DNA of 64,000 nt from Gammaproteobacteria bacterium (GCA_965222155.1 CBDCTH010000004.1:384001-448000); one strand, 5' to 3'. Shown: positions 30,374 through 55,932, counted from the stretch's first letter. Numbers and translations are program-made. The notes: a model not told the origin generated them from the sequence alone.

Positions 30374-30479
30374 TGTGCGCAGTGATAATTTTTCTGTAAA
30401 AATGTGTAATAATGCGCAATAATGCGATAAACCAAAAGAATTCGTTTACTTCTATCTGATAGCACAGGAGAAAAAAGTT

Positions 30480-33400
30480 ATGCCAATTTCAATTGAGAAA
30501 TCACCGCAAGATGCGCCTGCAGCTCTCGACACCGGGTTCAGCTTCGCACCGCATTCTGATGGTTCATTCGATGAGAAAAATAACACGTTTATGGGCACAC
30601 TTAACGACTCGTCCGATGTAGACTGGATCGTAATTGATTTGCGAGCGGGGAAAGAGTACACAATCGGCGTGAAAGGCGATAAGGGTGGGGTGAATGACAC
30701 CATCCTGAAACTCCTCGATTCAAAGGGTGGCATTGTTGAAGATAATGACGACGTTGACGGCGCCAAGGGGGAGCTCAACTCGGAAGTGATGTTCACCCCG
30801 AAAGAGGACGCCAAATACTACATCAGCGTCAGCGCCTATACGGGTAACCCGCAAGCGAAAATGGACAATAAGGGCGCTTACACGGTTACGGTGACAGAGG
30901 AGGACGTAGGTCCTGCGGATATTCACGGTACTAAAACGCAGACAAACTCACCGGCACCGACGCAGGAGAGGAGATCGATGGGAAGGAAGGTAACGACGAA
31001 TTGAAGGGCGGAAGCGGTAACGACAACTTGATAGGCGGCGACGGTAATGACTTGCTCGTAGGCGGTTCGGGCGCCGATACGCTCAGTGGCGGCGCTGGCG
31101 ATGACACGATATCTTACGAGGATTCAATAAAGGGCGTTACCATAAACCTGCTCACCGACACGGCCAAGGGTGGCGACGCCGATGGAGATACGATTGTTGA
31201 TAAGAAGGGTGATCAGATCGAGAACGTTCAGGGTTCCATGTATGATGACCGGCTCACCGGTAATGATGTGGGCAACAAACTCTGGGGCTTGGGTGGCAAT
31301 GATGAACTGAACGGTGGCAGGGGCGCAGACACCTTGTCTGGCGGCCCCGGTGACGATGCTCTGGACGGTGGAGATGACAATGACACCCTGGAAGGCGGCG
31401 CCGGCGCGGACGAACTGACCGGCGGCAAGGGTGACAATACCGCATCCTACGCTAGTTCGGAGATGGGCGTGACGGTACGTCTTCATGCTTCCAAGGCCAT
31501 GGGCGGCGACGCCGAAGGCGATACCTTTGGCGGGATGGTAACTGTGAAGTATACGGATGAGGATGGCGATCCTCAAGGGGAAAACCTCCCTGATATAATT
31601 AAGCTTACAGGTTCTGCTCACGACGATATACTGGCGGGCGACTTCAGGGATAACGTAATCGAGGGCGGCGCCGGCAACGATAGGCTGTACGGCGGCCCGG
31701 GTGGTGGTGATGGCAAAGGTGACGACACTAACAAGGACACGCTGCATGGTCAGGCTGGCGACGATAAGCTGTACGGTGGTGCCGGCGATGACAAGCTGTA
31801 CGGTGGTGCCGGCAGTGACGTGCTCTGGGGCGGCCCGGGTGAAGACACCTACGAGGGCGGCGCTGGTGATGATACCATTCACGCCGATAAGGATGACGTG
31901 ATGATTGATGGTGATGGTGATGGTGATGATGAAGACGACGCAACTGAGAATGGTAAAAACGACACCGTATCTTATGCGAAGTTAGATGATGGAGTTACCA
32001 GGATCCTTGGAGGAACTGGGGACGGCGTAACGATTAGTAACGTTGAGAACATTATCGGGTCTCAGGGCGACGACAACCTGACCGGTGATGATAGAAATAA
32101 CGTCATTGAAGGTGGCGAGGGTGGTGATACTCTTATAGGTGGAGGAGGAGAGGACACCTTATCCTATGCCAGTTCGGATGACTGGGTCAGGGTATCGCTT
32201 GCCACTGAAACTGCCTCCAGGGGGCACGCTTCAGGTGATGAGTTCCAAAACTTCGCAAATATTACCGGGTCTGGTCACGATGACGACCTGACCGGCAACG
32301 ACGAAGACAATGTGCTTAAGGGCGGTGACGGTGATGATGATCTGGTTGGTAACGAGGGCGCTGATACGCTGGAAGGCGGTGCTGGAGCCGATGAGTTGGA
32401 CGGCGGTATTCCTAATGCTACTAGTCAAGAAGGCGCTGGCGAGGAGGCAGATCTCGACGATACCTTGTCCTATGCAAGTTCGAACGCTGGCGTCACGGTA
32501 CACCTGGCTGGTGCCAGGGTTTCCGGCGGTCATGCCACAGGTGATACTATTGCGACTGTTGAAACGGACCATGATAAGGACGCAAAGACAGACAAAATTG
32601 ACGTCTCTACCTTCGAGAACGCTACCGGATCTATGTATAATGACACATTAACAGGCGATTATATGGACAACAAGCTCACCGGCAACGCCGGTGATGATAC
32701 CCTCAAGGGCGGTGCCGGAGCGGATACGCTTAACGGCGGCCCCGGGGCGGACACGCTTGATGGTGGATCGTCGTTGGAGGAAGGTGGTGATACCCCTAAC
32801 AACGCAACTGATGATAAGCAACACGTGGATATCGCATCCTACGCCGGAGCAACGGCAGGCGTTACAGTGGACTTGAGCACCGGCAGAGGGACGGCGGGCG
32901 ACGCCAAAGGCGATACGCTTGACGATATTGAGAAAGTCATGGGATCTGCAAATGATGATACGTTCATTGCCAGTGCAGGGGCTGACGACATTGATGGCAG
33001 CGCCCACGATGGGGACGACGAGGGAGACGAAGGTGGTGACGGTGATACCGTATCCTATGAAGCATCAGGAGCAGGCGTTGCTGTGACTTTGATGGGTGAT
33101 AACAATGCCACTATCCCCTCCAAGATTGGTACTGGTGATGCTGCTGTCGAAAATGGCGCCGCTGGCGATGTGCTTTCCAATATCGAGAACCTTACCGGGT
33201 CTGCTCAAGGTGATTCTCTGACTGGAGACGGAAATGACAATACCCTCAAGGGCGGTGATGGCGGTGACACACTGATGGGCTTAGCTGGTAATGACATGCT
33301 GATGGGCGACGCCGGCGATGACACACTGAATGGCGGCGCCGGCGATGACACACTGAATGGCGGCGCCGGCGATGACACACTGAATGGCGGTGATGGCAAA

Positions 33401-33745
33401 AACACACTGAATGGCGGTGCCGGCGATGACGTACTGAATGGCAATGCCGGCGGCGTTGACACCTTCGTATTCAGCCCCGATGATGGGGATTGGGATGATG
33501 TCATTGTTGACTTCGATGAAGGAACCGATAAAATTGACCTGTCAGCTTTCAGAAACCTTAATGCTGATGCTCTGAAGGATCTCATAGAAGTACGAGGGAG
33601 CAGCGTCATAATCGATCTGACTGGTCTTGGCGGAGGGAAAATTGCAATACAAGATGATGGCGCTGGTAACGCTAGGGCTTTGGAGGGAGTTCTAGAAAGC
33701 ACCCTAACAGACGACAATTCGGCAAATGATGTTTTCATCCTCTGA
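30480..33745 (+). pseudogene. RTX Ca-binding repeat surface protein, copy 1 (PPC-like N-domain), split by a -1 frameshift near 30935
   Basis: GGxGxD nonapeptides; ORFs 30480-31004 and 31001-33745 join if one base is added at ACT-AAAA-CGCA, by comparison with copy 2. Confidence 0.85.
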
Positions 33746-33991
33746 TCAACCTGAGCATCAAAACCAGCTTCCTGATTTCACGGAAGTAAACGATCACAGG
33801 GGCGGTTTAGCCGGGTTTCCCGTTTAAATCAGCCCCTGTTTTATTAAAAGGGGTCGGTGACAAATGAGAACAAAGTGATCGGGGTCAGGTCGCACAATGC
33901 GCAGTGTTAAAACCCGATTGACAACGAGCCTCAGCCAAGCTACACTGCCTGAACGATTAACTGGAAGTTGTAAGAAAAGGAGGTACACCCG

Positions 33992-34252
33992 ATGATAAAT
34001 CAAGAAGCCCAACCGAATGGCAGCATGGAGGCCTTCGCCAGCGCCTTTTCCAACCTGGTAAAAGACGCCACCTCACACCTGGCCACCAAGGACGACCTCG
34101 CCAACATGGCCGCCAACATGGCCACCAAGGACGATATCAATAAACTTTCCGACAGGATAGACAAGGTAGAGCAAACGGTAGCGGAAGGCTACAAGCGCAT
34201 TTATAGCTGGAGAGACGAGATGTATAAGACGTTTGTCCGAAAAGCAGAGTAA
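33992..34252 (+). CDS. Small ATKDD-repeat coiled-coil protein
   Basis: Strong RBS aggagg; HLATKDDLANMAANMATKDDI; identical copy at 44842-45102. Confidence 0.75.
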   Translation: MINQEAQPNGSMEAFASAFSNLVKDATSHLATKDDLANMAANMATKDDINKLSDRIDKVEQTVAEGYKRIYSWRDEMYKTFVRKAE

Positions 34253-34641
34253 TCCAGGACACCCATAAATCAGATAGACGTATCTGTAGCCTTCGAGAGT
34301 CTGGTAGTGTCAAATTTGTTTCGCACTTTTTTCTCTGGGGTCGAGTAATTCAGGACAACCACAAATTAGATAGCCATACCCTGTAGCCTTCCAGGGTCGG
34401 ACCCGTATGACCCCATTATAAGAATGGATGCCGGGTCAAGCCCGGTATGGCGACGAAGGAGTCGCCCCCCTGTCGCCGTTCCGGCGAACGATGAGAATCT
34501 GTGATGATTTGTGATAAAACCCACAACCTCGGGGAAAAATGTGTGGACAGGTTCGATGCATACAATTATATTAAAGATAACTCAGAACCGGTAGATAACA
34601 GGCTCGCACTGACCACATAAGGAGACTAAGGAAAATACACC

Positions 34642-34905
34642 ATGTCAATGGAATTAATTGCAATCATAGGCGTCGGCGTCACGCTGGCCGGGCTTATCCT
34701 GAATGGTCAACACAACCTGCGGAATGAGATAGGCGGCTTGCGGGAAGAAATTAATGGCCTGCGGGAAGAAATTAATGGCTTGCGGGAAGAAATTAATGGC
34801 TTGCGGGAACGCATGGCACATCTGGAAGGATTGCTTGAGGGCCTGCGTGAGGCTATTACCGGTCGACGTGTGGCCGAAGACTCCGGACAATACGACCCAC
34901 GCTGA
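34642..34905 (+). CDS. Membrane-anchored coiled-coil protein (MSMELI family), 87 aa
   Basis: N-terminal TM helix, LREEING heptads, conserved ERMAHLEGLLEGLREAITGRRVAE tail. Confidence 0.75.
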   Translation: MSMELIAIIGVGVTLAGLILNGQHNLRNEIGGLREEINGLREEINGLREEINGLRERMAHLEGLLEGLREAITGRRVAEDSGQYDPR

Positions 34906-34983
34906 CCTGTCCCTTCCTGCTTCCGCAGGAATTACGAGTACGGGTTTCTGCATTATTATCGGGTAAATGGAGTAATTCAGGGA

Positions 34984-35260
34984 GCAAATCCAGGACACCC
35001 ACAAATCTAGCTTCCTGATTTCACGGAAGTAAACGATCACAGGGGCAGAGTAATCCAGGACACCCATAAATCAGATAGATGGATCAGAGTCAGAACCTGT
35101 TTCCCAGGACAGTAATCCAGGACACCCATAAATCACACTGCCTTCAAAAGGTAGTTGCCCACACTTCCTTAAACCAGAACACCCATAAATCCTGTCCATC
35201 CTGTTAATCCATGTGAGAGTAATCCAGGACACCCATAAATCACGCTGCCTTCAAAAGGTA
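34984..35260 (+). repeat. CRISPR-like mini-array: 24-bp repeat AGTAATCCAGGACACCCATAAATC with 26-41-nt spacers (continues after IS630 to ~36825)
   Basis: Repeats at 34984, 35049, 35111, 35168 and 35218; spacers of 41, 38, 33 and 26 nt; no cas genes in the window. Confidence 0.8.
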
Positions 35261-35273
35261 GTACTCTTTCAAT

Positions 35274-36398
35274 TTAATTCTGACCGGTTAAATTGTCGTA
35301 TGCCCTGTGCAGTTTGGTCCGAGCCTTATCGACATCAAACAGCCAGTTGATGCTTGCTTTCTCCTGGTTGCGTTGGGTCTCCCAGGCCGCCAGTTCCGAT
35401 TGCAACAAGCCCATGCTGTCTATGCGACGGTCCAAACATTGCTGGTTCATGTTGCCAATCTCAATCTCCACCCTGTTCAACCAACTGGCGTGCTTGGGCG
35501 TATAATGAAACGCCAGCTTGCGCAATAACCGCCGCGCCGCTGGCGCCGGGAATGCCCGGTACAAGGCGGCCGGCTGGTGGGTGCTGTAGTTATCCAGCAC
35601 CACCCGTATGCGCTCGGCCTCCGGGTAATGCTCATCCACCAGTTCACGCATCAACTCGGCAAAGTCGCCCGCTTTCTTGGTCTTAGTCGCCTTGGCATGG
35701 CGCCAGCCACGATGCTGGTCAAAACACACAAAGATAGTCGCCACCCCCTTGCGCTCGTATTCATAATCTATCTTATTCACTTGGCCGGGCGCCATCGGCC
35801 TGCCCGCCTGCACCTCCCCCACCAATTGTTTCGTTGCCTCGTCCACGTTCACCAGCGGCCTCTCAGGACAGGACGGCTCAGCATACACATCCAGAATGTG
35901 CTCCATCTGCGCACTAGACGCCGCATCCATCTGCCCCAAACACCACATCTTCTGTTGCCAGGGTTTTAACTGATTCGCCTTCAAACGCTGCCGGATGCTC
36001 TCCAGGGATACCGCCTCCATATCCGTCAGCGCCACCCAGCGCGCCGCCAACAACGATAACGTCCACCGGCACCGGCCCGGTGGCGGGGCGCTGCACGCAA
36101 TCGATACCAGCAATGCATCCTCATGCGCCCCCGTCTTGCGCGGCCGACCGGGGCGTGCCCCTTCCGACAGCGCCGCCTCCAATCCATACTCCACAAACTC
36201 CCGCTTCACCCGATACACCGTCGAGCTGCTCACCCCCAACGCCTCGACGATCTCCTCCTCACGCCGTACACCACCGTCCGCCAACAACAATATCTGCGCC
36301 CGCTTCAACGCCCGTACCCGTTGCCTCCCTTGGGATGTAAATGCCTCCAAATACCCCCGCTCCTCAGCCGTCAGTTCCACCCTGTACCGAATATGCAT
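35274..36398 (-). CDS. IS630 transposase
   Basis: N-terminal HTH; DDE motifs NVDE, VLDNYSTH, HYTPKHASWLNRVE. Confidence 0.92.
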   Translation of the reverse strand: MHIRYRVELTAEERGYLEAFTSQGRQRVRALKRAQILLLADGGVRREEEIVEALGVSSSTVYRVKREFVEYGLEAALSEGARPGRPRKTGAHEDALLVSIACSAPPPGRCRWTLSLLAARWVALTDMEAVSLESIRQRLKANQLKPWQQKMWCLGQMDAASSAQMEHILDVYAEPSCPERPLVNVDEATKQLVGEVQAGRPMAPGQVNKIDYEYERKGVATIFVCFDQHRGWRHAKATKTKKAGDFAELMRELVDEHYPEAERIRVVLDNYSTHQPAALYRAFPAPAARRLLRKLAFHYTPKHASWLNRVEIEIGNMNQQCLDRRIDSMGLLQSELAAWETQRNQEKASINWLFDVDKARTKLHRAYDNLTGQN

Positions 36399-36449
36399 GA
36401 CCTTGACCCTCATAGGATAAAAGCGATAATAGATCATAAAATATCCGAT

Positions 36450-36713
36450 ATGTCGATCCCTGACGCTCCAATACCGCAACCCGGCTACACCTATCTGCAA
36501 GGCCAGTACCTCGCCTTTATTTACTACTACACCAAAATCAACGGCAGAGCGCCCGCACACGCCGATTTACAACGCTACTTCCAGGTCTCGCCTCCTTCCG
36601 TCCATCGCATGTTGACCCATTTGCAGGAGCAAGGATTCATTGACAAACAACCGGGGATGACTCGTAGCCTGGCACTGGCTATACCCGTTGAACAACTGCC
36701 ACGGCTTGATTAA
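36450..36713 (+). CDS. LexA-type winged-helix regulator carried by IS630
   Basis: TYLQGQYLAFI...RAPAHADLQRYFQVSPPSVHRML...GFI; lies inside the IRs. Confidence 0.75.
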   Translation: MSIPDAPIPQPGYTYLQGQYLAFIYYYTKINGRAPAHADLQRYFQVSPPSVHRMLTHLQEQGFIDKQPGMTRSLALAIPVEQLPRLD

Positions 36714-37409
36714 TGTTGACCCGTCAACTGATCAAAATTAAATGGAAAGAGTACTAGTTGCCCACACTTCCTTAAACCAGGACACCCATAAATCCTGTCC
36801 ATCCTGTTAATCCATGTGAATTCAACGTAAACAGCACAAAAGGGGTCGGTGACAAATGTAAATAATTCTCATTTGTCACCGACCCCTTTTATTGCTTTTA
36901 TTCTGTACCTTTGTATTACACCATTCCAGAACCTGCCCCGGAGACGTTGTTGTTCCAGGGGCGTGCTTCAGCGACACGAAATCAGACTGGGTTCCGGCTT
37001 AAGCCGGGCATGACACCCCACGTCGTACCGGACAGTGCAAATAGAAGACAGACCGCATTTTCTCTCCTCTGTGACAACCCGTCCCTTCTACCAGCCGGAT
37101 ACAGGGCAACCGCATACTTTTGGATTCTGTTGCAGAAGACAGGAAACCAACCGGAAAACACCGCCCGTCATGCTGGCGAATGCCAGCATCCAGTCAAACA
37201 ACAGCGCATGCTCAGGGTAATGAAGGGTTATTCACTGGATTCTGGCCTGCGCCAGAATGACGGAATCGGGCAAAAACATCTGAATTCAAAAGTATGCGTT
37301 TGCCCTGCAGCCGGATATTGGTTTTACCGGAATCGGGTTTGATCTATATAATAATCGTGCTATTGTGCATCAATAGTATGATTTTCTACTTTATCTGCTG
37401 CAGACTGAC

Positions 37410-37667
37410 ATGACGACCATTCGAAAGACGATTACCTTGACGGAAAATCAGGACGAGTGGGTCAAAGCGCAGACTGCCAATGGCGAATTCACCGATGACA
37501 GTGAATACATCCAGGCTCTTGTGCATCGTGACCAGAAGCAAAACATCAAGTTTCGAGCACTTAAAGTGGCTATTCAGGAGGGTTTGGATAGTGGTGTGAG
37601 TGACAAGACAGTGAATGAGATCATGGAGGAAGTCGATGGCCGGCATGGAGCCGATGGCAGCTTATAG
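37410..37667 (+). CDS. parD: ParD-like RHH antitoxin
   Basis: RKTITLT..QDEWVKAQ..GEF...SEYI, ALKVAIQEGLDSG. Confidence 0.85.
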   Translation: MTTIRKTITLTENQDEWVKAQTANGEFTDDSEYIQALVHRDQKQNIKFRALKVAIQEGLDSGVSDKTVNEIMEEVDGRHGADGSL

Positions 37668-37956
37668 CTTATCGTTAAAAGCAGCTGCTGATCTTGATGG
37701 AATTTATGAATACACGCTCCTGAATTTCGGGCAGACACAGGCACGAAAGTACCTGATGGGCCTTCATGAATGCTTTGAGAGGCTTGCCGATAACCCGTAC
37801 TATGGCCGCAGTGTGGTAGAGCTTGCATCAAACTTAAGGCGCTTGGAGTATCAATCACACGTAGTGTTCTACAGACCGAGAGAACAAGGAGTGCTGATCG
37901 TGCGTGTGCTGCATGAGAGCATGAATACAGCAACACATTTCCAGGAAAAAATCTAA
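37654..37956 (+). CDS. parE: ParE/RelE toxin
   Basis: YSLSLKAAADLDGIYEYT..FG..QA..Y, SHVVFY, IVRVLHESM. Confidence 0.87.
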   Translation: MAAYSLSLKAAADLDGIYEYTLLNFGQTQARKYLMGLHECFERLADNPYYGRSVVELASNLRRLEYQSHVVFYRPREQGVLIVRVLHESMNTATHFQEKI

Positions 37957-38230
37957 TTCGTGAAAAAGGGAGACAGGCCAGCCCGGTCTCAGCATAGGAC
38001 TGGAAAGTAATCCAGGACACCCACAAATCACACTACCTTCAAAAAGTAGTTTCCAACACTTCCTTAAACCAGGACACCCATAAATCCTGTCCATCCTGTT
38101 AATCCATGTGAATTCAAAGCAGTAATCTAGGACACCCACAAATCATGCTGGGTAATGTCAATATTTACTTTATCAATGGATAACCTGCGGTGATTTGTGA
38201 TAAAACCCACAAGCGCCGGGAAAAAATGTG

Positions 38231-39613: not shown

Positions 39614-39727
39614 TCCAGGAAAAAATGTGTGGACAGGTTCAACGCATAGAATTATATTAAAGATAACTCAGAACCGGTAGATAACGGGCACGCGCTGACT
39701 ACACAAGGAGACTAAGGAAAATACATC

Positions 39728-40024
39728 ATGTCAATGGAATTAATTGCCTTAATCGGTATCGGCGTGACGGTAATCAGTATCGGCGTTGCGCTGGCCGCTC
39801 TTATCCTGAATACTCAACGTAACCTGCGGTCTGATATGCAGGCTCAGCGGGAGGAGACGCGGGCAGAATTCAAGGCCGTGAGGGTGGAGATGCAGGCCCA
39901 GCGGGAAGTAATAATCAGTTTACTGGAACGCATGGCACACCTGGAAGGATTGCTTGAGGGTCTGCGAGAAGCGATCACAGGCCGACGCGTGGCTGAGGAT
40001 GCGGGGAAATACGATCCGCGCTGA
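39728..40024 (+). CDS. MSMELI-family TM coiled-coil protein, 98 aa
   Basis: Paralog with conserved upstream region and C-terminus. Confidence 0.75.
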   Translation: MSMELIALIGIGVTVISIGVALAALILNTQRNLRSDMQAQREETRAEFKAVRVEMQAQREVIISLLERMAHLEGLLEGLREAITGRRVAEDAGKYDPR

Positions 40025-40373
40025 ACACCGGCGCCAACCTCTCGCACATTGTCCAGAGTAATCCGGGACACCCATAAATCACACTGCCTTCAAAAGGTAG
40101 TTGCCCAAGAGTAATCCAGGACACCCATGAATCCTGTCCATCCTGTTAATCCATGTGAATTCAAGAGTAATCCAGGACACCCACAAATCATGATGGGTAG
40201 TGTCAATATTTTCGTTATAAATGGATAACCTGCGGCGATTTGTGATAAAACCCACAAGCGCCGGGGAAAAATGTGTGGACAGGTTCAAAGCGCACAATTA
40301 TATTAAAGATAACTCAGAACCGGTAGATAACGGGCTCGCGCTGACTACATAAGGAGGCTAGGGAAAATACATC

Positions 40374-45102: not shown

Positions 45103-45172
45103 CGGGTGTACCTCCTTTTCTTACAACTTCCAGTTAATCGTTCAGGCAGTGTAGCTTGGCTGAGGCTCGTTG

Positions 45173-45689: not shown

Positions 45690-48600
45690 TCAGAGGATGA
45701 AAACATCATCTGTCAGATTGTCATCTGCTAGGCTGACTATACTACCTTCTAGATATATCTCCAACTCTTTAGCGTCCTCAACGCTATTATCTTGTATTCC
45801 AATTTTCCCTCCGCCAAAATCAGTCAGATCGATTACGACGCTTTTCCCTCGTACTTCTATGATATCCTTCAGAGCATCAGCATTAAGGTTTCTGAAAGCT
45901 GACAGGTCAATGCGATCGGCGATATCACGATCGAACTCCAAGATGAGATCATCCCCATGTCCATCATCGGGGCTGAATACGAAAGTGTCATTGCCATCGC
46001 CGCCATCCAGTATGTCATCGCCAGCGCCGCCATTCAGTGTGTCATCGCCATCACCGCCATCCAGTGTGTCTTTGCCGGCACCGCCGTACAGCATGTCATT
46101 ATCGCTGCCGCCTCCCAGTTTGTCATCACCGGCGTCGCCCATCAGTGTGTCATCGCCATCACCACCCTCCAGCGTGTCACCGCCATCACCGCCCTTGAGG
46201 GTATTGGCATTTCTGTCTCCAGTCAGAAAATCAACTTGAGCAGACCCGGTAAGGTTCTCGATATTGGAAAGCACATCGCCAGCGGCGCCATTTTCGGCAG
46301 CAGCATCACCAGTACCAATTTCGTCTCCAATGATGTCTTTGCCCAAAGTCACAGCAACGCCTGCTCCTGATGCTTCATAGGATACGGTATCACCGTCTTC
46401 CTTATCACCGTCCTTTGGATTATCCATATTGTGGCCACCGCCATTAATCACGTCGACCCCTTCACTGGCAATAAACGTATCATCATTTGCAGACCCCTCG
46501 ACTTTCTCAATATTGACAAGCGTATCGCCATCGGCATCGCCTGCGGTACCTCTGCCGGTAGCCAGGTTCACCGTCACTCCCGCCTCTGCGTCGGTGTAAG
46601 ATGCGATATCCATAGAAGCATCGTTTTCCCCTGGATCTTCTCCACCATCAAGCCTGTCGGCGCCAGGGCCGCCGTTAAGCGTATCCGCTCCGGCACCGCC
46701 CTTGAGGGTATCATCACCGGCGTTGCCGGTGATGATGTTGTCCCTGTAGTCACCGGCCAATGTGTCATTATGCATAGAGCCGGTAGCGTTCTCGAAGGTG
46801 GAGACGTCAATTTCGTCTGTCGGATTGTTGTCGTCTTTGTCCCCATCATGGTCCGTTTCAACAGTCGCAATAGTATCGCCGTTGGCATGACCGCCGGAAA
46901 CCCTGGCGCTAGCCAGGTTTACCGTGACGCCAGCGTTCGAACTCGCATAGGACAAGGTATCTTTGAGATCCGAGACTTGATTATCTGCCTTAGACTCACC
47001 ACCGTCCAACTCGTCGGCTCCGGCACCGCCTTCCAGTGTATCAGCGCCCAAGCCACCGACCAGCTCATCATCACCATCACCGCCCTTGAGCACGTTGTCT
47101 CCGCCGTTGCCGGTCAGGTCGTCATCGTGAGTAGACCCAGCGATATTTTTGAAGCCAGTGGCTTCATCGCCTGAAGCGTGACCCCTGGAGGCAATTGCAG
47201 CCTCATCGTCGCCATCACGCAGCGTTACCCTGACCCAGTCATCCGAGCTGGCATAGGACAAGGTGTCCTCTCCTCCTCCACCTTTAAGAGTATCACCACC
47301 CTCGCCGCCTTCAATGATGTTATCTTCTGTATCACCGGTCAGCGTGTCGTCGCCCTGAGACCCGATAATGTTCTCAACGTTCTCAATCTTTACGTTACTC
47401 GCAGATTCTGTATCTCCAAGGATCCTGATAACTCCTTCCTCTAACTTCGCATAAGATACGGTGTCGTTTTTACCATTATCAGTTGTGTCGTCTTGATCAT
47501 CACCATCAATCGCCTTGTCATCCTTATCTGCGTGAATGGTATCATCACCAGCGCCGCCCTCGTAGGTGTCTTCACCCGGGCCGCCCCAGAGCACGTCATT
47601 GCCGTCGCCGCCTTCCAGCGTGTCTTCGCCGGCACCGCCGAACAACATGTCATCGCCAGCATCACCATGCAGCGTGTCCTTGTTAGTGTCGTCACCTTCG
47701 CCATCACCACCACCCGGGCCACCGTACAGCTTATCGTTGCCAGCGCCACCCTTGATTACGTTATCCCTGAAGTCGCCCGCCAGTATATCGTCGTGAGCAG
47801 AACCCTTAAGATTAATTATATCGGGGAGGTCTTCATCTTGATCATCGCCATCTTCATCCGTATACTTCGCAGTTACCATCCCGCCAAAGGTATCGCCTTC
47901 GGCGTCGCCGCCCATGGCCTTGGAAGCATGAAGACGTACCGTCACGGCCATCTCCGAACTGGCGTAGGACGCGGTATTGTCACCCTTGCCGCCGGTCAGT
48001 TCGTCCGCGCCGGCGCCGCCTTCCAGCGTGTCATTGTCATCTCCACCGTCCAGAGCATCGTCACCGGGGCCGCCAGACAGGGTGTCATCGCCGGCGCCAC
48101 CGTTCAGTTCATCATTGCCACCCAAGCCCCAGAGTTTGTTGCCCACATCATTACCGGTGAGCCGGTCATCATACATGGAACCCTGAACGTTCTCGATCTG
48201 ATCACCCTTCTCGTCAACAATCTCATCTCCATCGGCGTCGCCACCCTTGGCCGTGCCGGTGAGCAGGTTTATGGTGACGCCCTTTATTGATTTCTCGTAA
48301 GATATCGTGTCATCGCCGCCGCCGCCACTGAGCGTATCGGCGCCCGAACCGCCTACGAGCAGGTCATCACCGTCGCCGCCTTTCAAATCGTCGTTACCGC
48401 TTCCGCCCTTCAATTCGTCGTTACCTTTACCCCCATCAATCTTCTCTCCTGCGTCGGTGCCGTCGAGTTTGTCTGCCAAATCAGTACCGGTAATATCCGC
48501 AGGACCTACGGCCTTCTCTGTCACCGTAACCGTGTAAGCGCCCTTATTGTCCACTAGCGGGTTACCCGTATAGGCGCTGACGCTGATGTAGTATTTGGCG

Positions 48601-48932
48601 TCCTCTTCCGGGGTGAACATCACTTGCGAGTTGAGCATCCCCTTGGCGCCGTCAACGTCGTCATTATCTTCAACAATGCCACCCTTTGAATCGAGGAGTT
48701 TCAGGATGGTGTCATTCACTCCACCCGTATCATCGCCTTTCACGCCGATTGTGTACTCTTTCCCCGCTCGCAAATCAATTACGATCCAGTCTACATCGGA
48801 CGAGTCGTTAAGTGTGCCCGTAAACGTGTTATTTTTCTCATCGAATGAACCATCAGAATGCGGTGCGAAGCCGAACTCGGTGTCGAGAGCTGCAGGCGCA
48901 TCTTGCGGTGATTTCTCAATTGAAATTGGCAT
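45690..48932 (-). CDS. RTX Ca-binding repeat surface protein, copy 2 (intact, 1080 aa)
   Basis: PPC-like N-domain, many GGxGxDxLxG repeats, T1SS-type C-terminus ..DDVFIL; no signal peptide. Confidence 0.9.
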   Translation of the reverse strand: MPISIEKSPQDAPAALDTEFGFAPHSDGSFDEKNNTFTGTLNDSSDVDWIVIDLRAGKEYTIGVKGDDTGGVNDTILKLLDSKGGIVEDNDDVDGAKGMLNSQVMFTPEEDAKYYISVSAYTGNPLVDNKGAYTVTVTEKAVGPADITGTDLADKLDGTDAGEKIDGGKGNDELKGGSGNDDLKGGDGDDLLVGGSGADTLSGGGGDDTISYEKSIKGVTINLLTGTAKGGDADGDEIVDEKGDQIENVQGSMYDDRLTGNDVGNKLWGLGGNDELNGGAGDDTLSGGPGDDALDGGDDNDTLEGGAGADELTGGKGDNTASYASSEMAVTVRLHASKAMGGDAEGDTFGGMVTAKYTDEDGDDQDEDLPDIINLKGSAHDDILAGDFRDNVIKGGAGNDKLYGGPGGGDGEGDDTNKDTLHGDAGDDMLFGGAGEDTLEGGDGNDVLWGGPGEDTYEGGAGDDTIHADKDDKAIDGDDQDDTTDNGKNDTVSYAKLEEGVIRILGDTESASNVKIENVENIIGSQGDDTLTGDTEDNIIEGGEGGDTLKGGGGEDTLSYASSDDWVRVTLRDGDDEAAIASRGHASGDEATGFKNIAGSTHDDDLTGNGGDNVLKGGDGDDELVGGLGADTLEGGAGADELDGGESKADNQVSDLKDTLSYASSNAGVTVNLASARVSGGHANGDTIATVETDHDGDKDDNNPTDEIDVSTFENATGSMHNDTLAGDYRDNIITGNAGDDTLKGGAGADTLNGGPGADRLDGGEDPGENDASMDIASYTDAEAGVTVNLATGRGTAGDADGDTLVNIEKVEGSANDDTFIASEGVDVINGGGHNMDNPKDGDKEDGDTVSYEASGAGVAVTLGKDIIGDEIGTGDAAAENGAAGDVLSNIENLTGSAQVDFLTGDRNANTLKGGDGGDTLEGGDGDDTLMGDAGDDKLGGGSDNDMLYGGAGKDTLDGGDGDDTLNGGAGDDILDGGDGNDTFVFSPDDGHGDDLILEFDRDIADRIDLSAFRNLNADALKDIIEVRGKSVVIDLTDFGGGKIGIQDNSVEDAKELEIYLEGSIVSLADDNLTDDVFIL

Positions 48933-49104
48933 AACTTTTTTCTCCTGTGCTATCAGATAGAAGTAAACGAATTCTTTTGGTTTATCGCATTACCAAGCAA
49001 TAAAAGCGCCGTGATTGACAGTTATGACCTCTTATATTGATATACTCCACAATTTTCTTGCAGTGAAGCGTCAATAAAATGAACCAACTTTGAGGATGTT
49101 AATC

Positions 49105-50073
49105 ATGATGAAACCAATCGAAAGCGAGAACAGTTTTTATGAGGACGTGCTTTTTTCAGCATTAGCGAACAATACCCGTATTGCCTACAACAAGGGCTGG
49201 TCCTGTTTTCAAGACTACTGCGTGGAGACAGACGTCAATCCATTATCTGCGACGCCCGCTCAGGTAGCTGAATTTTTTATTGACCTTGGGTCACGCGCCA
49301 ATACATCCAGCGGGAAAAAGTTATCAGTTGGCACACTTATTCTGTATAGGAGCGCGATAAACAGGCAGTATGTGGAAGCATACAAACCTTCACCCACCAA
49401 CCATCCAAAGGTGAATGCCGTCCTGAAAGGATTGGCGCGGATGCGCGGAACTGCGCCGCGCCGGGTGCAGGCTTTGCGGGAGTATCATATCTTGTGTATG
49501 TTGGAGCAGTGTGGAAACAGCCTGATCGGGCTGCGCAACGCGGCGATTATTTCGCTTGGTTTCTCGGGTGCCTTACGCAGGTCTGAAATATGCGCTCTCA
49601 CTATCGACGATATTCAAATCATTCCGCCACTCAATGGAGACGATGCCCGTAAAATGTTTGTTCATATCCGAAAATCGAAAACAGATCAGGAAGGGAGGGG
49701 ACAACGCATCGCTATTCCGGAGGGTCAACGGATAAAACCGATAAAACGATTGGATGATTGGCTTCAGGCGTCAGGCATCACGCAGGGGTACGTGTTCCAG
49801 ACGATGAGACGTGGGGGTCATTTGCGTGGACGTCCTTTGCATCATTCGGATATTCCTCGACTGCTGAAGCACTACGCCAAAGCTATTGGTCTGAACCCCG
49901 GTGAGATCGCCGGCCACTCACTACGGGCAGGCTTTGTGACCAGTGCGGCTGTTCACCATGCGCGTCTGGACAAAATCATGGAAATTACGCGACACAGCAA
50001 CCCGGAAACGGTCATGAGATACATTCGGGACGTGGAGTTATTCAGAGATCACGCCGGAAAGGATTTTTTGTAA
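49105..50073 (+). CDS. Tyrosine recombinase (Cre/phage-integrase-like)
   Basis: SAM-like N-domain; catalytic R (GALRRSE), K (KSKTDQ), HSLR, H (TRHS), Y (MRYIR). Confidence 0.9.
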   Translation: MMKPIESENSFYEDVLFSALANNTRIAYNKGWSCFQDYCVETDVNPLSATPAQVAEFFIDLGSRANTSSGKKLSVGTLILYRSAINRQYVEAYKPSPTNHPKVNAVLKGLARMRGTAPRRVQALREYHILCMLEQCGNSLIGLRNAAIISLGFSGALRRSEICALTIDDIQIIPPLNGDDARKMFVHIRKSKTDQEGRGQRIAIPEGQRIKPIKRLDDWLQASGITQGYVFQTMRRGGHLRGRPLHHSDIPRLLKHYAKAIGLNPGEIAGHSLRAGFVTSAAVHHARLDKIMEITRHSNPETVMRYIRDVELFRDHAGKDFL

Positions 50074-50201: not shown

Positions 50202-50630
50202 ATGACGGATCAACAAGACAAACTTAACGGCAGCGCGCAAACATTTATCCGCGCGTTTTCCGACCTGATAAAGGATGCCACGTCTCACTTGGCCACCAAG
50301 GATGACATAGCCAACATGGCCACCAAGGATGACATAGCCAACATGGCCACCAAGGACGACATAGCCAACATGGCCACCAAGGACGACATAGCCAACATGG
50401 CCACCAAGGACGATATAGCCAACATGGCCACCAAGGACGATATAGCCAACATGGCCACCAAGGACGATATAAATCAACTTTCAGACAGGATAGACAGGGT
50501 GGAGACCCACCTCAACCGGCAAATAGTCACGACCAATAAAAACATGCAGGCGCAGTTTGCCCAACAGGAGAAGAAAATCGCCGAGATTAATAGAAAGCTG
50601 GACGAAGCCGGCTATATGAACACGCGCTGA
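50202..50630 (+). CDS. ATKDD-repeat coiled-coil protein with 7 x 27-bp repeats
   Basis: ATKDDI x7 (six full ATKDDIANM units); N-terminus homologous to the MINQEAQ proteins; RBS ggagga. Confidence 0.75.
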   Translation: MTDQQDKLNGSAQTFIRAFSDLIKDATSHLATKDDIANMATKDDIANMATKDDIANMATKDDIANMATKDDIANMATKDDIANMATKDDINQLSDRIDRVETHLNRQIVTTNKNMQAQFAQQEKKIAEINRKLDEAGYMNTR

Positions 50631-50898: not shown

Positions 50899-52641
50899 AT
50901 GCAGCAGCTTCCAGGTCCATCCGGCCCGTCCCAGGAGACACAGTTGCAGGCAGCGTTGCGCCGTTGCCGCGGCGGTTTCGTGGGGGTGACGGTATTCAGC
51001 GCGGTGGCCAACATACTGATGCTGGTGGCGCCGGTGTACATGTTGCAGATGTACGACCGGGTGCTGACCAGCGCCAGTTTCGAGACCTTGATCGTGCTGA
51101 CCATGATCGCGGTCTTCCTGCTGGCCTGCTTCGGCTTGCTGGACTGGGTACGGCAACGCCTGATGGCGCGCATCGCCCTGACTTTGAACCATGATGTGCA
51201 GGATGAAGTACTGGCCGGCGTATTCCGCGGCAGTTTGCAGCGCTTCCGGCAAAGCGTCGACCAACCGGTGCGCGACCTGGATACGGTGCGCCAGTTTATT
51301 TCCAGTCCCCCTGCGCTGGCCTTCTTTGATGCGCCCTGGGCGCCGGTGTTCATCGCCGTCATCTTCCTGATCCATCCCTGGCTGGGGTTCTTCGCGATAT
51401 TTGCTGCGTTGTTCATCCTGTTCCTGGCCCTGCTGACGGAGTGGACGTCACGGGGACCGCTCCGGAATGCCTCGGAGCACACGGCGGAGTCCAATCGATT
51501 TGTGGAGAGCAGCCTGCGCCATGCGGACGTACTGGAGGCGATGGGCATGTTCGAGGGCTTTCGCCGCCGCTGGCGCGACAAGCACGACCGTAGCGTGGCC
51601 TTCCAGGCCCGGGGCGGTTCCCGGATCAGCGCGTTGCTGGCCACCTCAAAGTCGGGCCGCCAGATCGTGCAGGTGGGCATCCTGGGCATGGGCGCTTGGC
51701 TGGTGCTCAAACAGGATATCTCGCCGGGCATGATGATCGCCGCCTCCATTATCCTGGGGCGTGCGCTGGCGCCTATCGAACAAGGCATATCGGCGTGGCG
51801 CGGCTTTGTCTCCGCCCGCCAGGCCTGGCGCCGGCTCAATAACCTGCTCAAGAGCGCGCCGCCGGCGCGGGGCGGCGGCGCGTCGAGCCTGCCCCGGCCC
51901 ACGGGCAAGCTGGATGTGGAGGGGGTATCTGCTGCGCCGCCCGGGACGACGACACTGGCCTTGAAGCGTGTGCATTTCACCCTGGAAGCGGGTTCCAGTA
52001 CCGGACTCATCGGTCCCAGCGGCAGTGGCAAAAGCACCCTGGCCCGCCTGATGGTGGGCGTCTGGACACCCCAGGGCGGGGTGGTGCGCCTGGACGGAGC
52101 GGCCATAGGAGACTGGCCGAGCGAGAGCCGCTTCCGCCACGTGGGTTACCTGCCCCAGGAGGTAGAACTGTTCGAGGGCACCGTGGCCGAGAACATTGCC
52201 CGCCTGTCTGAGCCGGACAACGACGCGGTGCTCGCCGCGGCGCAGCAGGCGAACTGCCATGACATGGTCATGCGCCTGCCGGAGAACTACAATACGCCCA
52301 TTGCGGCCGGCGGTTCCAACCTGTCAGCCGGACAACGCCAGCGCGTGGCCCTGGCGCGGGCTTTGTACGGCGACCCGGCGCTGATTATACTGGACGAGCC
52401 GGACGCAAACCTGGATACGGACGGCGAGATGGCGCTCAGAAACGCCTTGCGCACCCTGTCCCAGCGCGGCGTGACAACCCTGATGGTGACCCACAATTTC
52501 CGCCTGTTGCAGATGGTCGAATTTGTACTGGTATTGAAGGAAGGCGTCCTGCTGGAGAGCGGCCCCCGCGAAGAAGTCCTGAAACGCTTCATGCGCCCCG
52601 CCCCGGCTGCCGGCGAGAAGAAGGCGCAGGCTGGTAGTTGA
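50899..52641 (+). CDS. Type I secretion ABC transporter (PrtD/AprD type)
   Basis: YMLQMYDRVL, FFDAPW, GPSGSGKST, LSAGQRQR, ILDEP. Confidence 0.93.
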   Translation: MQQLPGPSGPSQETQLQAALRRCRGGFVGVTVFSAVANILMLVAPVYMLQMYDRVLTSASFETLIVLTMIAVFLLACFGLLDWVRQRLMARIALTLNHDVQDEVLAGVFRGSLQRFRQSVDQPVRDLDTVRQFISSPPALAFFDAPWAPVFIAVIFLIHPWLGFFAIFAALFILFLALLTEWTSRGPLRNASEHTAESNRFVESSLRHADVLEAMGMFEGFRRRWRDKHDRSVAFQARGGSRISALLATSKSGRQIVQVGILGMGAWLVLKQDISPGMMIAASIILGRALAPIEQGISAWRGFVSARQAWRRLNNLLKSAPPARGGGASSLPRPTGKLDVEGVSAAPPGTTTLALKRVHFTLEAGSSTGLIGPSGSGKSTLARLMVGVWTPQGGVVRLDGAAIGDWPSESRFRHVGYLPQEVELFEGTVAENIARLSEPDNDAVLAAAQQANCHDMVMRLPENYNTPIAAGGSNLSAGQRQRVALARALYGDPALIILDEPDANLDTDGEMALRNALRTLSQRGVTTLMVTHNFRLLQMVEFVLVLKEGVLLESGPREEVLKRFMRPAPAAGEKKAQAGS

Positions 52642-52875
52642 CGGAACACCCATCCCCCTATTACCACTCCTGCGAAAGCAGGAGTCTCACGCGCTAGATT
52701 CCTGCTCCCGCTGCAAGTGAGCAGGAATCCAGTGAAATACTGAGTCTGGGGACGGCACAATGAGAGATGAGGAGCATCGCCAGGTATTTTATGTAAGTTG
52801 CGCTTTTGTCGTCATGCCGGGCTTGACCCGGTATCCAGTCTGATAATGTGTCGCCCCTGGCGACTCCTTGTCTCA

Positions 52876-53010
52876 CTGGATTCCGGCATTCGCCGGAATG
52901 ACGACAGGGGGGCCTCGCCGGAATGACGACAGGGGCCTCGCGGAATGACGACAGGGGGCTTCGCCGGAATGACGACAGGGAGCCTCGTCGGAATGACGAC
53001 AGGGGGATTC
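52876..53010. repeat. REP palindrome followed by ~4 tandem 22-24-bp units (gccggaatgacgacagggggcctc)
   Basis: Direct inspection. Confidence 0.85.
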
Positions 53011-53098
53011 GTCGAAATCATACTGGATGCCGGGTCAAGCCCGGCATGGTAGAATCGCCGTGATGACAATCGAATGTAGAAGCAGTACGAGTTAAATT

Positions 53099-54547
53099 AT
53101 GGTCGCAGAAGCTGAACAATCCACATTGGCCCTGGCGGGCAAAGTCACGAGCGGCTGGCTGCAACGCCTGTCCGGTTACATCGTCTCCCTTATCCGCGGA
53201 CCCAAGGAGGAGGACGTCGGGCTGTCCCAGGACGCTGCGGATGAAAAGAAAGAATTGCAGGCACTGTTGTCCCGCGATGTGGTCATGCGCCGGGGGATCA
53301 TCGTGATCGTCATCGCCCTGGGCGGATTCCTGGCCTGGGCGACGCTTGCGCCCCTGACAGAAGGCGTGGTTGCGATGGGTACGGTGGTGGTGGATACGGA
53401 GCACAAGACCATCCAGCACCTGGAGGGCGGTATTGTCGAGACCCTGTACGTGCATGAGGGCAGCGAGGTCAAGGCCGGGGACGTGCTTATTGAATTAAGT
53501 GAGACCCAGAACCGCGCCCAGTTGGAGCTCCTGGAAAGCCGTTATTACGGGCGCTTGGCGGAGATCAACCGCTTGAATGCCGAGCGCCTGTTGCAGGAGG
53601 AGATTGCCTTTTCCGACGAACTGGTCGCCCTGCGCGACGATCCGGTGATCGCCGATATCCTGTCGGTGCAGGAAAACCTGTTCCAGGTGCGGCGGCGCCA
53701 GTACCACGGCCAGATCGAGGTCCTGCGCCATCGCATCAGCCAGCTTGAGGAGCAGATCCACGGCCTGGATGCAAGCCGAGGGGCCTTGTTGCGCGAGCAG
53801 GGCTTGATCGAGAAGGACCTGGAAAGCCTGGTTGCCCTGCGCGATCAGCAATTGATTGATGAGGGCGTGCTGATCAACCGGCAGCGCGAATACGAACAGA
53901 GCATCGGCCGACTCGGCAGCCTCGTCGCGGACATCGCCTCGACCCGGGTAAAAATCGGTGAAACCCGCCAGGAGATCCTCCAGATCGAACACGGCTGGGG
54001 CACGGAGGTATCCGACCAGATCAACACGGCGCAACAGCAATGGTTCGAGACCCGCGAGCGTATCGCCTCGGTGCAGGACGTGTTGCAGCGTACCACCATC
54101 GTGGCGCCCCAGGACGGCAAGGTCATCGGACTCAGCGTCCACACCCTGGGCGGGGTGATCCCGCCCGGCAGTTCCATTATGAACATTGTCCCGACTGAAG
54201 AACGGCTCATGGTGGAAGGCCAGGTGCGGCCCACCGACGTGGACAACGTCTACCTCGGCCAGACGGCCAGGTTGCGGTTTTCGGCCTTCAGTTGGCGCAC
54301 CACGCCCCAGGTTAAAGGCACGGTCGAGCGCGTCTCGCCCGATGCCTTCCGCGACGACGAGGCCGGCACCGCCTACTATATCGCCCGCATACTGGTCCCC
54401 GAGGATGAAATGGCGAAGCTGGGCGACGTCACCGTCGGCCCCGGCATGCCGGTGGACATCATGTTCACCGGCAGCGACCGCACCGCCATGTCGTACCTGA
54501 CCAAGCCCCTGACCGACATCATGGGCAAGGCGATGGTCGAAGAATGA
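53099..54547 (+). CDS. Type I secretion membrane fusion protein (HlyD family)
   Basis: TIQHLEGGIV, VKAGDVL, IVAPQDG, VGPGMP. Confidence 0.93.
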   Translation: MVAEAEQSTLALAGKVTSGWLQRLSGYIVSLIRGPKEEDVGLSQDAADEKKELQALLSRDVVMRRGIIVIVIALGGFLAWATLAPLTEGVVAMGTVVVDTEHKTIQHLEGGIVETLYVHEGSEVKAGDVLIELSETQNRAQLELLESRYYGRLAEINRLNAERLLQEEIAFSDELVALRDDPVIADILSVQENLFQVRRRQYHGQIEVLRHRISQLEEQIHGLDASRGALLREQGLIEKDLESLVALRDQQLIDEGVLINRQREYEQSIGRLGSLVADIASTRVKIGETRQEILQIEHGWGTEVSDQINTAQQQWFETRERIASVQDVLQRTTIVAPQDGKVIGLSVHTLGGVIPPGSSIMNIVPTEERLMVEGQVRPTDVDNVYLGQTARLRFSAFSWRTTPQVKGTVERVSPDAFRDDEAGTAYYIARILVPEDEMAKLGDVTVGPGMPVDIMFTGSDRTAMSYLTKPLTDIMGKAMVEE

Positions 54548-55923
54548 TTGGGGTCAGAGTAAACACGACGAATTACCATTCCTGCGGAAGCAGGAATCCA
54601 CTAAGCCTATCAATGGATTCCTGCTTTCGCAGGAATGGCGCTGGGGGCGCACGAATAGGGTTCGCCATACTCATGTTATCACTCTGCCTGGGACAGACCG
54701 CCATGGCCGGCGAGTCGGCCGGTTCCTACACCTTGTCGCAGGCGTTTCTGGATGCGCAGGCGCGGGATGCCCGGATGCAGGCGGCCGATAATCGCGTGGC
54801 GGAAGCGCGCGAGAGGCTGGTGGAAGTCAACACCAGTCGCCGCCCCTCGCTCACCATATCCGGCAACACCGGGTACAGCCATAACCGCAGCGAGGCTCGC
54901 GTGAAGCAGACCTATGAGGGGCACTCGTACCGGGGCAGGCTGCAGCTTAACCAGAACCTGTATACCTTCGGCCGTCTGGAGGGCCGCCAGCGCCGGGCCG
55001 AGGCCGAGATCGCCGAGGCGGAATACGCTTTTGAGGAAGTGCGCCAGGAAGTCCTGGCGGAGGTCGCCCGCGCCTTTTCCGAGCAGTTGTTCCGGAAACG
55101 CATCTACGACAGCCGGCGCGACTTCGAGATGCTGCTGGTCGATCTTGAAGACATTGCGCGCCGGCGTATCGAACAGGGTAGCCTGGACCGCACCGAGTTG
55201 TTTGAAGTCCTGCGCCGCCTGCACCAGGCGCGGGCGCAGCGTATTGAGGCCGATTCCTATTACCGGGTGGCGCGGGCGCAGTTAGTGCGGCTGACGGGAA
55301 CCGAGCATGACGACCTGGCGCCCACTTCCCTGGCCGGCCTGGAACTGGCGACTCCGGCCAGTCTCGAAGATGCGCTGATCCGGGCCGAGAACCGGTCCCC
55401 CTCCCTGGCGCGGGCGCGCATGCGCCTGGAAGCCGCAGAAGGAGAGCTGGCGTTCCGCAAGGCTGAGCTCTGGCCGACCCTGAGCCTGGAGGTCAACGCC
55501 AGCGCCGGCCACGTTGGGCCGATCGACACCCGCGATATTGTCGGCGGAGTCAACCTTTCGGTGCCGATGTATGAAGGCGGCCTCAAGCGCTCACAGTTGC
55601 GCGGCGCCAGGCTGGCGATGGAAACCGCGCGCCGGGACTTGTCCGCGGAACGGGACCAGGTCGAGATAGACGTACGCTCGAACTGGGACCTGCTTGAGGG
55701 ATTGATCCATTCCCTGCGGGAGTTCGAGGCCGCAATCGCAGATATGGAAGAGGTGGTGGAACTGACCGGCAGCAAGCTGGACGTCGGCCGCGCTACCTTC
55801 GTGCAGCACATCGAAGCCCGCCAATCCGCCCTGGACGTCGAATTCGACACCCTGGACAGCCGCCTGCGCCTGGAAGAAACCCGCATCGCCCTGCTCCGCC
55901 TCCTGGCGGAACTGAATCCCTGA
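54544..55923 (+). CDS. TolC-family outer membrane channel
   Basis: OEP repeats (RPSLTISG, LNQNLYTFG, WPTLSL, LSVPMYEGG); ATG overlaps the hlyD stop. Confidence 0.88.
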   Translation: MIGVRVNTTNYHSCGSRNPLSLSMDSCFRRNGAGGARIGFAILMLSLCLGQTAMAGESAGSYTLSQAFLDAQARDARMQAADNRVAEARERLVEVNTSRRPSLTISGNTGYSHNRSEARVKQTYEGHSYRGRLQLNQNLYTFGRLEGRQRRAEAEIAEAEYAFEEVRQEVLAEVARAFSEQLFRKRIYDSRRDFEMLLVDLEDIARRRIEQGSLDRTELFEVLRRLHQARAQRIEADSYYRVARAQLVRLTGTEHDDLAPTSLAGLELATPASLEDALIRAENRSPSLARARMRLEAAEGELAFRKAELWPTLSLEVNASAGHVGPIDTRDIVGGVNLSVPMYEGGLKRSQLRGARLAMETARRDLSAERDQVEIDVRSNWDLLEGLIHSLREFEAAIADMEEVVELTGSKLDVGRATFVQHIEARQSALDVEFDTLDSRLRLEETRIALLRLLAELNP

Positions 55924-55932
55924 GAAATCCAC

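Follow-up and report, generated by a model that had tools for sequence, protein, structure and literature searches.

A candidate recombinase-driven DNA inversion switch for whole RTX genes in a gammaproteobacterium

We analyzed a 64,000-nucleotide stretch of DNA from a Gammaproteobacteria bacterium (GCA_965222155.1, CBDCTH010000004.1:384001-448000), here called the window, in which two RTX genes, a gene for a Cre-like tyrosine recombinase and the genes of a type I secretion system (T1SS) lie together in what looks like a DNA inversion switch. All positions at this locus are coordinates of the whole stretch. The two RTX genes are convergent and sit in two inverted arms, which were recovered by repeat search, by blastn and by global alignment. 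Arm 1 (30420..34304, plus strand) comprises a conserved 60-nt 5' untranslated region (5'UTR), RTX copy 1 and a small open reading frame (ORF), and arm 2 (44790..48992, minus strand) carries RTX copy 2 and includes a 337-bp tandem duplication. By blastn, the arms are 89.5% identical over 2390 nt and 86.0% identical over 1410 nt. Identity begins abruptly, at exactly 30420 and 48992, in each case 60 nt upstream of the ATG (30480 and 48932). From these edges inward, global alignment gave 99% identity over the outermost 261 nt, a mosaic middle with 47-96% identity per 100 columns, and 100% identity over the innermost 431 nt (33874-34304 and 44790-45220). An earlier note on this DNA, made from the sequence alone, had described the convergent arms, the edge of identity 60 bp upstream of both ATGs, the alternation of conserved and diverged blocks and a Cre-like recombinase gene about 110 bp outside the right arm, and each of these descriptions was borne out.

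RTX copy 2 (45690..48932, minus strand) is intact; its product of 1080 aa contains a PPC domain and RTX repeats in 12 stretches, which together score 246 bits against HemolysinCabind in Pfam. RTX copy 1 (30480..33745, plus strand) also has an N-terminal PPC domain and RTX repeats and ends in the same few C-terminal residues, but it is frameshifted. Near 30937, one net -1 frameshift divides it into an ORF of 174 aa with the PPC domain (30480-31004) and an ORF of 914 aa with the RTX repeats (31001-33745). Since 13 of the 14 indels that separate the copies in the coding part of the global alignment are multiples of three, the copies appear to have diverged under frame-keeping pressure, and the break in copy 1 looks recent. 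The ratio dN/dS between the copies is patchy, exceeding 1 in 5 of 27 windows of the comparison, with dS = 0 and dN > 0 in three more; this pattern fits diversifying pressure on the protein and also relaxed constraint on the broken copy. Slipped-strand phase variation at the frameshift was considered and rejected, as that point holds neither a homopolymer nor a short repeat; the copies differ there over a short patch. The RTX proteins of the window reach the NCBIfam cut-off of no named RTX toxin or protease family, and neither an intact nor a chimeric copy 1 was found in the protein collection, where the best match other than the query itself is 62% identical. Copy 2, at about 85% protein identity to the query, is absent from the listed homologs of the 914-aa ORF of copy 1, and the genomes of relatives carry at least three to four paralogs of this RTX family. 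Finally, no Rfam RNA element matches at its gathering score anywhere in the window, the 5'UTR included.

The recombinase gene (49105..50073, plus strand) lies next to arm 2. Its likely ATG at 49105, within an ORF spanning 49090-50073, is 113 nt outside the right arm, and the predicted protein has 322 aa. It matches Phage_integrase in Pfam with 58.6 bits (cut-off 27.1, 9e-16), and its best match of solved structure is Cre (E 1.8e-5, residues 72-311). The catalytic R, K, H-x-x-R, H and Y are all present, as R159, K192, H271, R274, H297 and Y306, and these residues are invariant in 12 family members. Relatives are abundant and of nearly the same length: 6861 of 8000 scored candidates reach E ≤ 1e-3, and the best 120 listed are 60-100% identical and 303-330 aa long. 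A scan limited to one genome per species yielded 79 loci (numbered L001 onward), each taken with 10-kb flanks, whose recombinases are 50-79% identical to that of the window. These loci come from Gammaproteobacteria, Thermodesulfobacteriota, Latescibacterota, Binatia, Chloroflexota, Dehalococcoidia, Caldilineaceae, Acidobacteriota, Paracoccaceae, Arenicellales, Dadabacteria and others, lineages that are presumably mostly sponge-associated, one of them being named 'Candidatus Spongiihabitans'. A more distant group (35-38% identical) occurs in Methylobacterium-like bacteria. Plasmid homologs are at most 40% identical and phage homologs at most 33%; given these low identities, and since most are 'site-specific integrase' genes on small plasmids, they are uninformative about the role of the recombinase in the window.

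Beyond the recombinase gene, on the plus strand, lie the type I secretion genes (50899..55923). They encode an ABC exporter of the PrtD type (50899-52641; TIGR01842, 676 bits against a cut-off of 510), a membrane-fusion protein (MFP) that is an HlyD-type adaptor (53099-54547; TIGR01843, 372 bits against a cut-off of 209) and an outer-membrane protein of the OEP/TolC-like kind (54544-55923). The earlier note had called this an ABC-MFP-TolC exporter, an assignment that stands for the first two components; the third matches OEP in Pfam (151 bits) but scores 162 bits against the NCBIfam TolC model, under its cut-off of 225 bits. An RTX protein with linked genes for an ABC exporter, an MFP and an outer-membrane protein has the arrangement predicted for T1SS-exported RTX proteins. 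Repeats also mark this region. Two blocks of 25-nt tandem repeats (55841-56425) lie directly 3' of the TolC-like gene, where they overlap several short ORFs, and a 79-nt direct repeat (89% identical) brackets the MFP and TolC-like genes, its first copy (52808-52886) falling between the ABC and MFP genes and its second (56338-56416) past the TolC-like gene.

The two outer flanks of the arms differ in their promoter content, as judged by a consensus scan. Just outside the left arm is a cluster of five sigma-70-like matches on the plus strand (30134..30373, with starts at 30134, 30205, 30238, 30295 and 30345), which we propose as the expression site. The scanned left region holds 20 such matches, compared to 4.9 ± 2.1 in shuffled sequence. 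On the other side, the scan called nothing on either strand in the 113 nt that separate the right arm from the recombinase gene.

What the recombinase family adjoins in other genomes bears directly on how the arms of the window should be read. Self-comparison revealed an inverted repeat of at least 40 nt, with the near arm ending 43-444 nt upstream of the recombinase gene, in 19 of 71 loci. In 25 of the 79 loci, tblastn detected an inverted fragment of a Type IIG methyltransferase gene abutting the recombinase. At these methyltransferase-type loci, the inverted repeat is mostly about 80-180 nt long with its partner some 1.2-1.4 kb away, and there is a full-length Eco57I-type, Type IIG-like gene with a TaqI_C specificity domain (Pfam), labeled REase_MTase_IIG by PADLOC and often preceded by a PLD+SNF2 helicase gene. 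Twelve inverted, promoterless partial ORFs consist of the TaqI_C domain only and lie opposite the full-length Eco57I-type gene. In the main text of a systematic survey, methylases with the Eco57I domain are among the gene families most enriched for programmed inversion, with cases confirmed by long reads (PMC9881135). The recombinase with its inverted methyltransferase fragment is a known kind of programmed inversion. Near the recombinase of the window, there is no Type IIG methyltransferase with a TaqI_C domain, which means that the window is not such a shufflon.

The family also adjoins other cargo. In L028, L033, L035 and L067, inverted pairs of proteins of 460-550 aa, with no family match, lie next to the recombinase gene (L028 6252-9622, L033 4604-9494, L035 6576-9775 and L067 11143-18057); their repeats reach 930 nt at 99% identity, and they represent a third kind of cargo. 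PADLOC has no model matching either the recombinase or the proteins of the inverted pair in L035. A MalT-like regulator of the LuxR family follows the recombinase gene in L003 (6744-9521) and in L005 (10977-13670), as does a response regulator of the LuxR family in L028, L033 and L035 (at about 11050-11990), a proximity that hints at regulated switching.

In 16 of the methyltransferase-type loci, the arm near the recombinase (proximal, P) and the far arm (distal, D) lose identity at one fixed point, right after AT-N-GCA in the motif ...TAAAT/TTAAT-N-GCA. Arms that part at one fixed spot are the expected trace of a crossover confined to a short central stretch. Two forms exist of the 35 nt immediately inside this spot, with form B at P and form A at D in eight loci, the reverse in four, and the same form at both sites in the remaining four, an arrangement that fits inversions during the history of the family. 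We built a 24-nt weight matrix from the 16 methyltransferase-type P sites only, with the window excluded. When the roughly 128,000 positions of the window were scored, the first rank went to 48977..49000 on the plus strand (20.3 bits) and the second to 30412..30435 on the minus strand (19.0 bits), the latter straddling the outer end of arm 1. These two candidate sites, P and D of the window, mark the outer ends of the arms and are inverted relative to each other, arm identity stops inside the site at both ends, and the end of P is 105 nt from the ATG of the recombinase gene.

The P site reads TTGGTTT-ATCGCA-TTACCAA, that is, imperfect 7-bp inverted arms around an asymmetric 6-bp center. The D site has the same inner arm and the same ATCGCA center with a different outer arm, and a 14-nt core occurs exactly twice in the window, in inverted orientation. 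Comparable dyads are found in L006 (GCGGTAA-ATCGCA-TAACCGC) and L005 (GCGTTAA-GTCGCA-TTAACGA), and arm positions covary across the window, L006 and L005. Among the 63 loci outside the matrix (1,057,637 bases), there are eight matches of at least 18 bits. Six are within 147 nt upstream of a recombinase gene, and the other two look like partner sites, one being an identical inverted copy in L059 and the other a directly oriented second site in L006. The highest match overall (26.7 bits) is in noncoding DNA upstream of the RTX gene of L006. The matrix scan found no site at the inner ends of the window arms. Two identical matches at 40214-40237 and 42709-42732 (16.6 bits) were rejected as partners of P or D since their center differs; both belong to a repeat that precedes two small membrane/coiled-coil ORFs by about 160 nt.

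Four gammaproteobacterial relatives in the scan, L001, L003, L005 and L006, pair this recombinase with RTX cargo. Their recombinases are 72-79% identical to that of the window, and beside each is a divergently oriented RTX gene with the same N-terminal domain. The order of recombinase gene, site, conserved 5'UTR and RTX gene is kept in all four. Over the 29-52 nt that match, their 5'UTRs are 90-100% identical to that of the window, compared to only 46-53% for the RTX proteins. L001 and L005, which are complete chromosomes, also have a second, convergent RTX copy, the left copy of L005 extending off the examined DNA. L005 further shares the T1SS genes and has an ORF of 404 aa placed and oriented as the fabB-like gene on the right side of the window. 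In two other loci, L002 and L004, the contigs end 133-143 nt upstream of the recombinase gene, where the repeat would begin.

Considering the family context, the inverted P and D sites and the conserved link between recombinase and 5'UTR, we propose that inversion of 30.4-49.0 kb would swap the RTX genes behind the left promoters, and we judge it on balance probable that the locus is a site-specific inversion switch driven by its recombinase. The recombinase would recognize a core site of about 20 bp, present as P beside its own gene and as D in inverted orientation 18.5 kb away, each site being followed by the same 60-nt 5'UTR and an RTX gene. Strand exchange within the 6-bp ATCGCA center would flip the 18.5 kb between P and D, and the RTX genes would trade places relative to fixed flanks, each taking its 5'UTR and ribosome-binding site along; the left flank has the promoter-like cluster, and the right one has the recombinase gene and no recognizable promoter. 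In the assembled orientation, the frameshifted copy 1 would be behind the promoter cluster and the intact copy 2 beside the recombinase gene; inversion would bring copy 2 into the expression site, and its product would be exported via the adjacent PrtD-type T1SS. The result would be that a secreted or surface RTX protein is switched on and off or alternates between variants. The layout of the locus, the matches to the site matrix, the habit of the family of adjoining inverted gene pairs and the synteny in relatives are observations, and from them we infer that the recombinase cuts P and D, that the left side alone is transcribed and that the switch is still active.

The earlier note had suggested that inversion would place copy 2 behind the promoters. 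The family context, the inverted sites and the linkage kept in relatives favor this, while the promoters are matches at the level of a consensus and the copy now behind them is frameshifted. Overall, the interpretation in that note is partly supported, and the link to the recombinase is firmer than a reading of the sequence alone could tell.

Several findings weigh against an inversion switch. Neither a second orientation nor a recombinant junction was seen in the assembled sequences, relatives being covered to 10 kb on each side. No complete inverted site pair was present within these flanks either, which could not have shown a partner equivalent to that of the window, 18.5 kb away. L001 has one site only, with no partner in 21 kb, and the possible partner site in L003 has a different center. 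In L006, a single RTX gene lies between two sites in direct orientation (5938-5961, 20.5 bits, and 9831-9854, 26.7 bits), and the RTX gene adjacent to the recombinase heads the T1SS operon; it is therefore probably transcribed, which weakens the case for a silent recombinase side. Insertion sequences (IS) have damaged several of these loci. In L005, the recombinase gene is interrupted after about five codons (8697-9989), in L003 the RTX gene is split (2509-3993), and in L001 a shortened left RTX copy abuts an IS21-type pair (273-2588). About 40 of the 79 family loci have no inverted paralog. As to the sites, 6 of 200 shuffled windows reach 19.0 bits somewhere, and matches of 17-18 bits arise by chance, the third-ranked match in the window (17.9 bits at 62667) falling in a PHA synthase gene; the evidence for the sites consequently rests on their positions and not on their scores. 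Finally, the frameshift in copy 1 and the IS-filled interior fit decay as well as they fit a switch.

Decay is indeed the main rival. In this explanation, the arms are a static inverted duplication of the RTX gene and the small ORF that arose once, perhaps long ago through the recombinase; copy 1 has only lately become a pseudogene, and the recombinase either survives as a relic or acts on another target. The frameshift in copy 1, an interior with IS630, ISNCY and many repeats resembling miniature inverted-repeat transposable elements (MITEs), and the disruption by IS of the recombinase or the RTX gene in relatives speak for it, as does the failure to find a two-site inverted pair in those relatives (10-kb flanks, and 21 kb for L001). 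Against it, the recombinase ORF is intact with all its catalytic residues, both sites are undamaged and agree throughout the inner arm and center, and nearly all of the coding indels keep the frame. Moreover, arm ends that are 99-100% identical on either side of a middle that drops to 47% suggest continuing exchange. We consider decay unlikely, if still a serious contender.

A switch that works by inversion also has to be weighed against cassette capture and excision, as in the pneumococcal tvr locus or in an integron-like system, with the inverted copy in the window being an insertion by-product. The direct sites around the single RTX gene of L006, which could allow that gene to be excised as a circle, speak for such a scheme; each arm of the window starts exactly at a site, and the high identity of the family across many phyla suggests a mobile module. 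The inner arm ends are without a site, though, and the sites of the window are inverted, an orientation between which a tyrosine recombinase inverts and does not excise. Most family contexts are, in addition, inverted pairs, and cassette exchange therefore strikes us as improbable for the window.

We give even less credence to a process like that of Campylobacter fetus, in which any variation would come from gene conversion or RecA-dependent homologous recombination acting on the 3.9-kb arms, with the recombinase uninvolved. Long tracts of identity (431 nt at 100% and 261 nt at 99%) are available for it, and the alternation of conserved with diverged blocks is compatible with conversion tracts. 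It leaves unexplained, however, why arm identity ends inside a motif common to unrelated methyltransferase shufflons and why recombinase, site and 5'UTR stay linked in four relatives. The earlier note had also allowed for chimeric genes, which would need homologous recombination inside the arms; no evidence of them was found, the best non-query match to copy 1 in the protein collection being 62% identical. Exchange between the arms by RecA may well take place alongside the switch, and through the perfect 431-nt repeat it would flip the interior only. Last, it is very improbable that the inverted copy or its orientation is an artefact of mis-joined repeats. The arms do contain sequences of a kind that assemblers mishandle, namely an exact 431-nt repeat and an exact 337-bp tandem duplication, and in L002 and L004 the contigs stop 133-143 nt upstream of the recombinase gene. 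However, a difference of 10-15% between the copies, the 14 coding indels and the unique flanks mark them as distinct loci, and convergent RTX pairs recur in the complete chromosomes L001 and L005.

A site-specific inversion switch in the window could be one instance of something broader, a single Cre-like invertase that spread horizontally, has a portable 7-6-7 site of about 20 bp and has been reused in more than 10 phyla, mostly uncultured, for two unrelated cargos, the specificity domains of Type IIG methyltransferases and, in this gammaproteobacterial lineage, whole T1SS-exported RTX genes handled as site-bounded cassettes. Such RTX cassettes, which in the window are inverted and in L006 have a direct site on either side, would then form an integron-like or expression-site system for host-interaction proteins of symbionts. 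This generalization is speculative, and we regard it as doubtful.

The remaining features of the locus concern small ORFs and mobile elements. Both arms extend past the RTX stop codons and take in an ORF of 86 aa, coiled-coil-like, which in arm 1 (33992..34252, plus strand) is in the 100%-identical inner end. In the right arm, the perfect 337-bp tandem duplication (44879-45515) carries the small ORFs 44842-45102 and 45173-45439. A third paralog, of 142 aa and with 27-nt tandem repeats, follows the recombinase gene (50202..50630, plus strand) and has homologs in L005. The inter-arm filler (34305..44789) is 10.5 kb long and rich in IS and MITE-like elements. It includes an IS630 transposase gene (35274-36560, minus strand), a ParD antitoxin gene (37410-37667, plus strand) with an adjoining ORF of 113 aa, an ISNCY transposase gene (38357-39547, minus strand), six small transmembrane/coiled-coil ORFs and MITE-like repeats of about 110 nt in both orientations. 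An integron was rejected as an explanation for this region, as there is no IntI-type match, the recombinase reaching at best 50 bits with an NCBIfam model whose cut-off is 220, and as the repeats point both ways. The RTX and T1SS genes are accompanied by small ORFs of two families, one membrane/coiled-coil and the other of the 86/142-aa type with 27-nt repeats; they are found at 34642-43256 in the window, at 18105-18872 in L001, and at 2655-3933 and 13853-14215 in L005. None of the small ORFs matches a family at its curated cut-off.

Farther to the left, the gene group at 25823-29905, with a DUF4143 AAA ATPase, an ORF with an Hjc-like nuclease fold and a PIN-domain ORF, looks like a small defense or toxin-antitoxin patch. 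An ORF of 638 aa (2528-4444) matches the TAZ zinc finger, a eukaryote-type domain, with 30.5 bits against a cut-off of 25. An EgtD-like histidine methyltransferase is encoded by a full gene (18208-19293) and by a partial second copy (22159-22758), which are 3 kb apart and separated by unrelated ORFs.

Among known systems, programmed inversions shuffle the specificity domains of Eco57I-type/Type IIG, DISARM-like and BREX PglX methyltransferases, as described in the main text of one survey (PMC9881135), and three further papers deal with Type I hsdS invertons with PsrA (PMC7672463, PMC7096588, PMC4948785). Methyltransferase invertons are the usual context of the recombinase family of the window and share with it the site motif and the distance from site to recombinase. 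In those systems, however, the 3' end of one gene is swapped, the site is in coding DNA and the cargo is a defense enzyme, whereas the window would swap whole genes together with their ribosome-binding site, from a noncoding site, and with a secreted protein as cargo. Cre of phage P1, with loxP, has the same catalytic residues and the same plan of site, inverted arms around an asymmetric center. It differs in its low sequence similarity, in its role and in the dimensions of the site, 13-8-13 for loxP and 7-6-7 in the window. In the R64 shufflon, Rci acts on sfx sites and swaps C-terminal ends of the pilus adhesin PilV, drawing on many short segments, and only one arm of each site is well conserved, a feature that recalls the D site of the window, which keeps only the inner arm and the center.

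The sap system of Campylobacter fetus has divergent genes around a promoter inside an invertible segment; its inversion is RecA-dependent and is not known to involve a dedicated site-specific recombinase. The resemblance is in T1SS-exported paralogs with conserved 5' ends, inversion in sap changing which copy is expressed. In contrast, the genes of the window are convergent, its promoter-like cluster is outside the segment, and a recombinase with a candidate site is adjacent, so that the defining layout of sap is absent. The analogy to C. fetus drawn in the earlier note is thus a loose one.

Our full-text literature search found no paper on a dedicated site-specific recombinase that varies an RTX protein exported by a T1SS, and RTX, hemolysin and type I secretion do not occur in the main text of the systematic survey (PMC9881135). 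If an inversion switch does operate in the window, it would be the first case that we have found of such a protein varied in this way. It would also mean that one invertase family, together with its core site, can move from the shuffling of defense genes to the variation of surface or secreted proteins. As the recombinase is 50-80% identical across many groups, it could serve as a marker for programmed variation in uncultured symbionts.

The best mechanistic analogue, better than sap, would be the Vpma, Vsa and Vsp systems of Mycoplasma, in which a conserved 5' leader holds the site and inversion brings a whole gene behind one fixed promoter. As in the window, a tyrosine recombinase lies beside surface-protein genes and the site is in a conserved 5' untranslated stretch. 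Surface-lipoprotein switching of this kind by a Xer-like tyrosine recombinase is exemplified by Xer1 of M. agalactiae (PMC2268961). The window differs from these systems in having two genes and not a cluster, in encoding RTX proteins of about 1080 aa that are predicted to be T1SS-exported in a gammaproteobacterium, and in the length of the segment, 18.5 kb. Its recombinase is Cre-like and of a different family.

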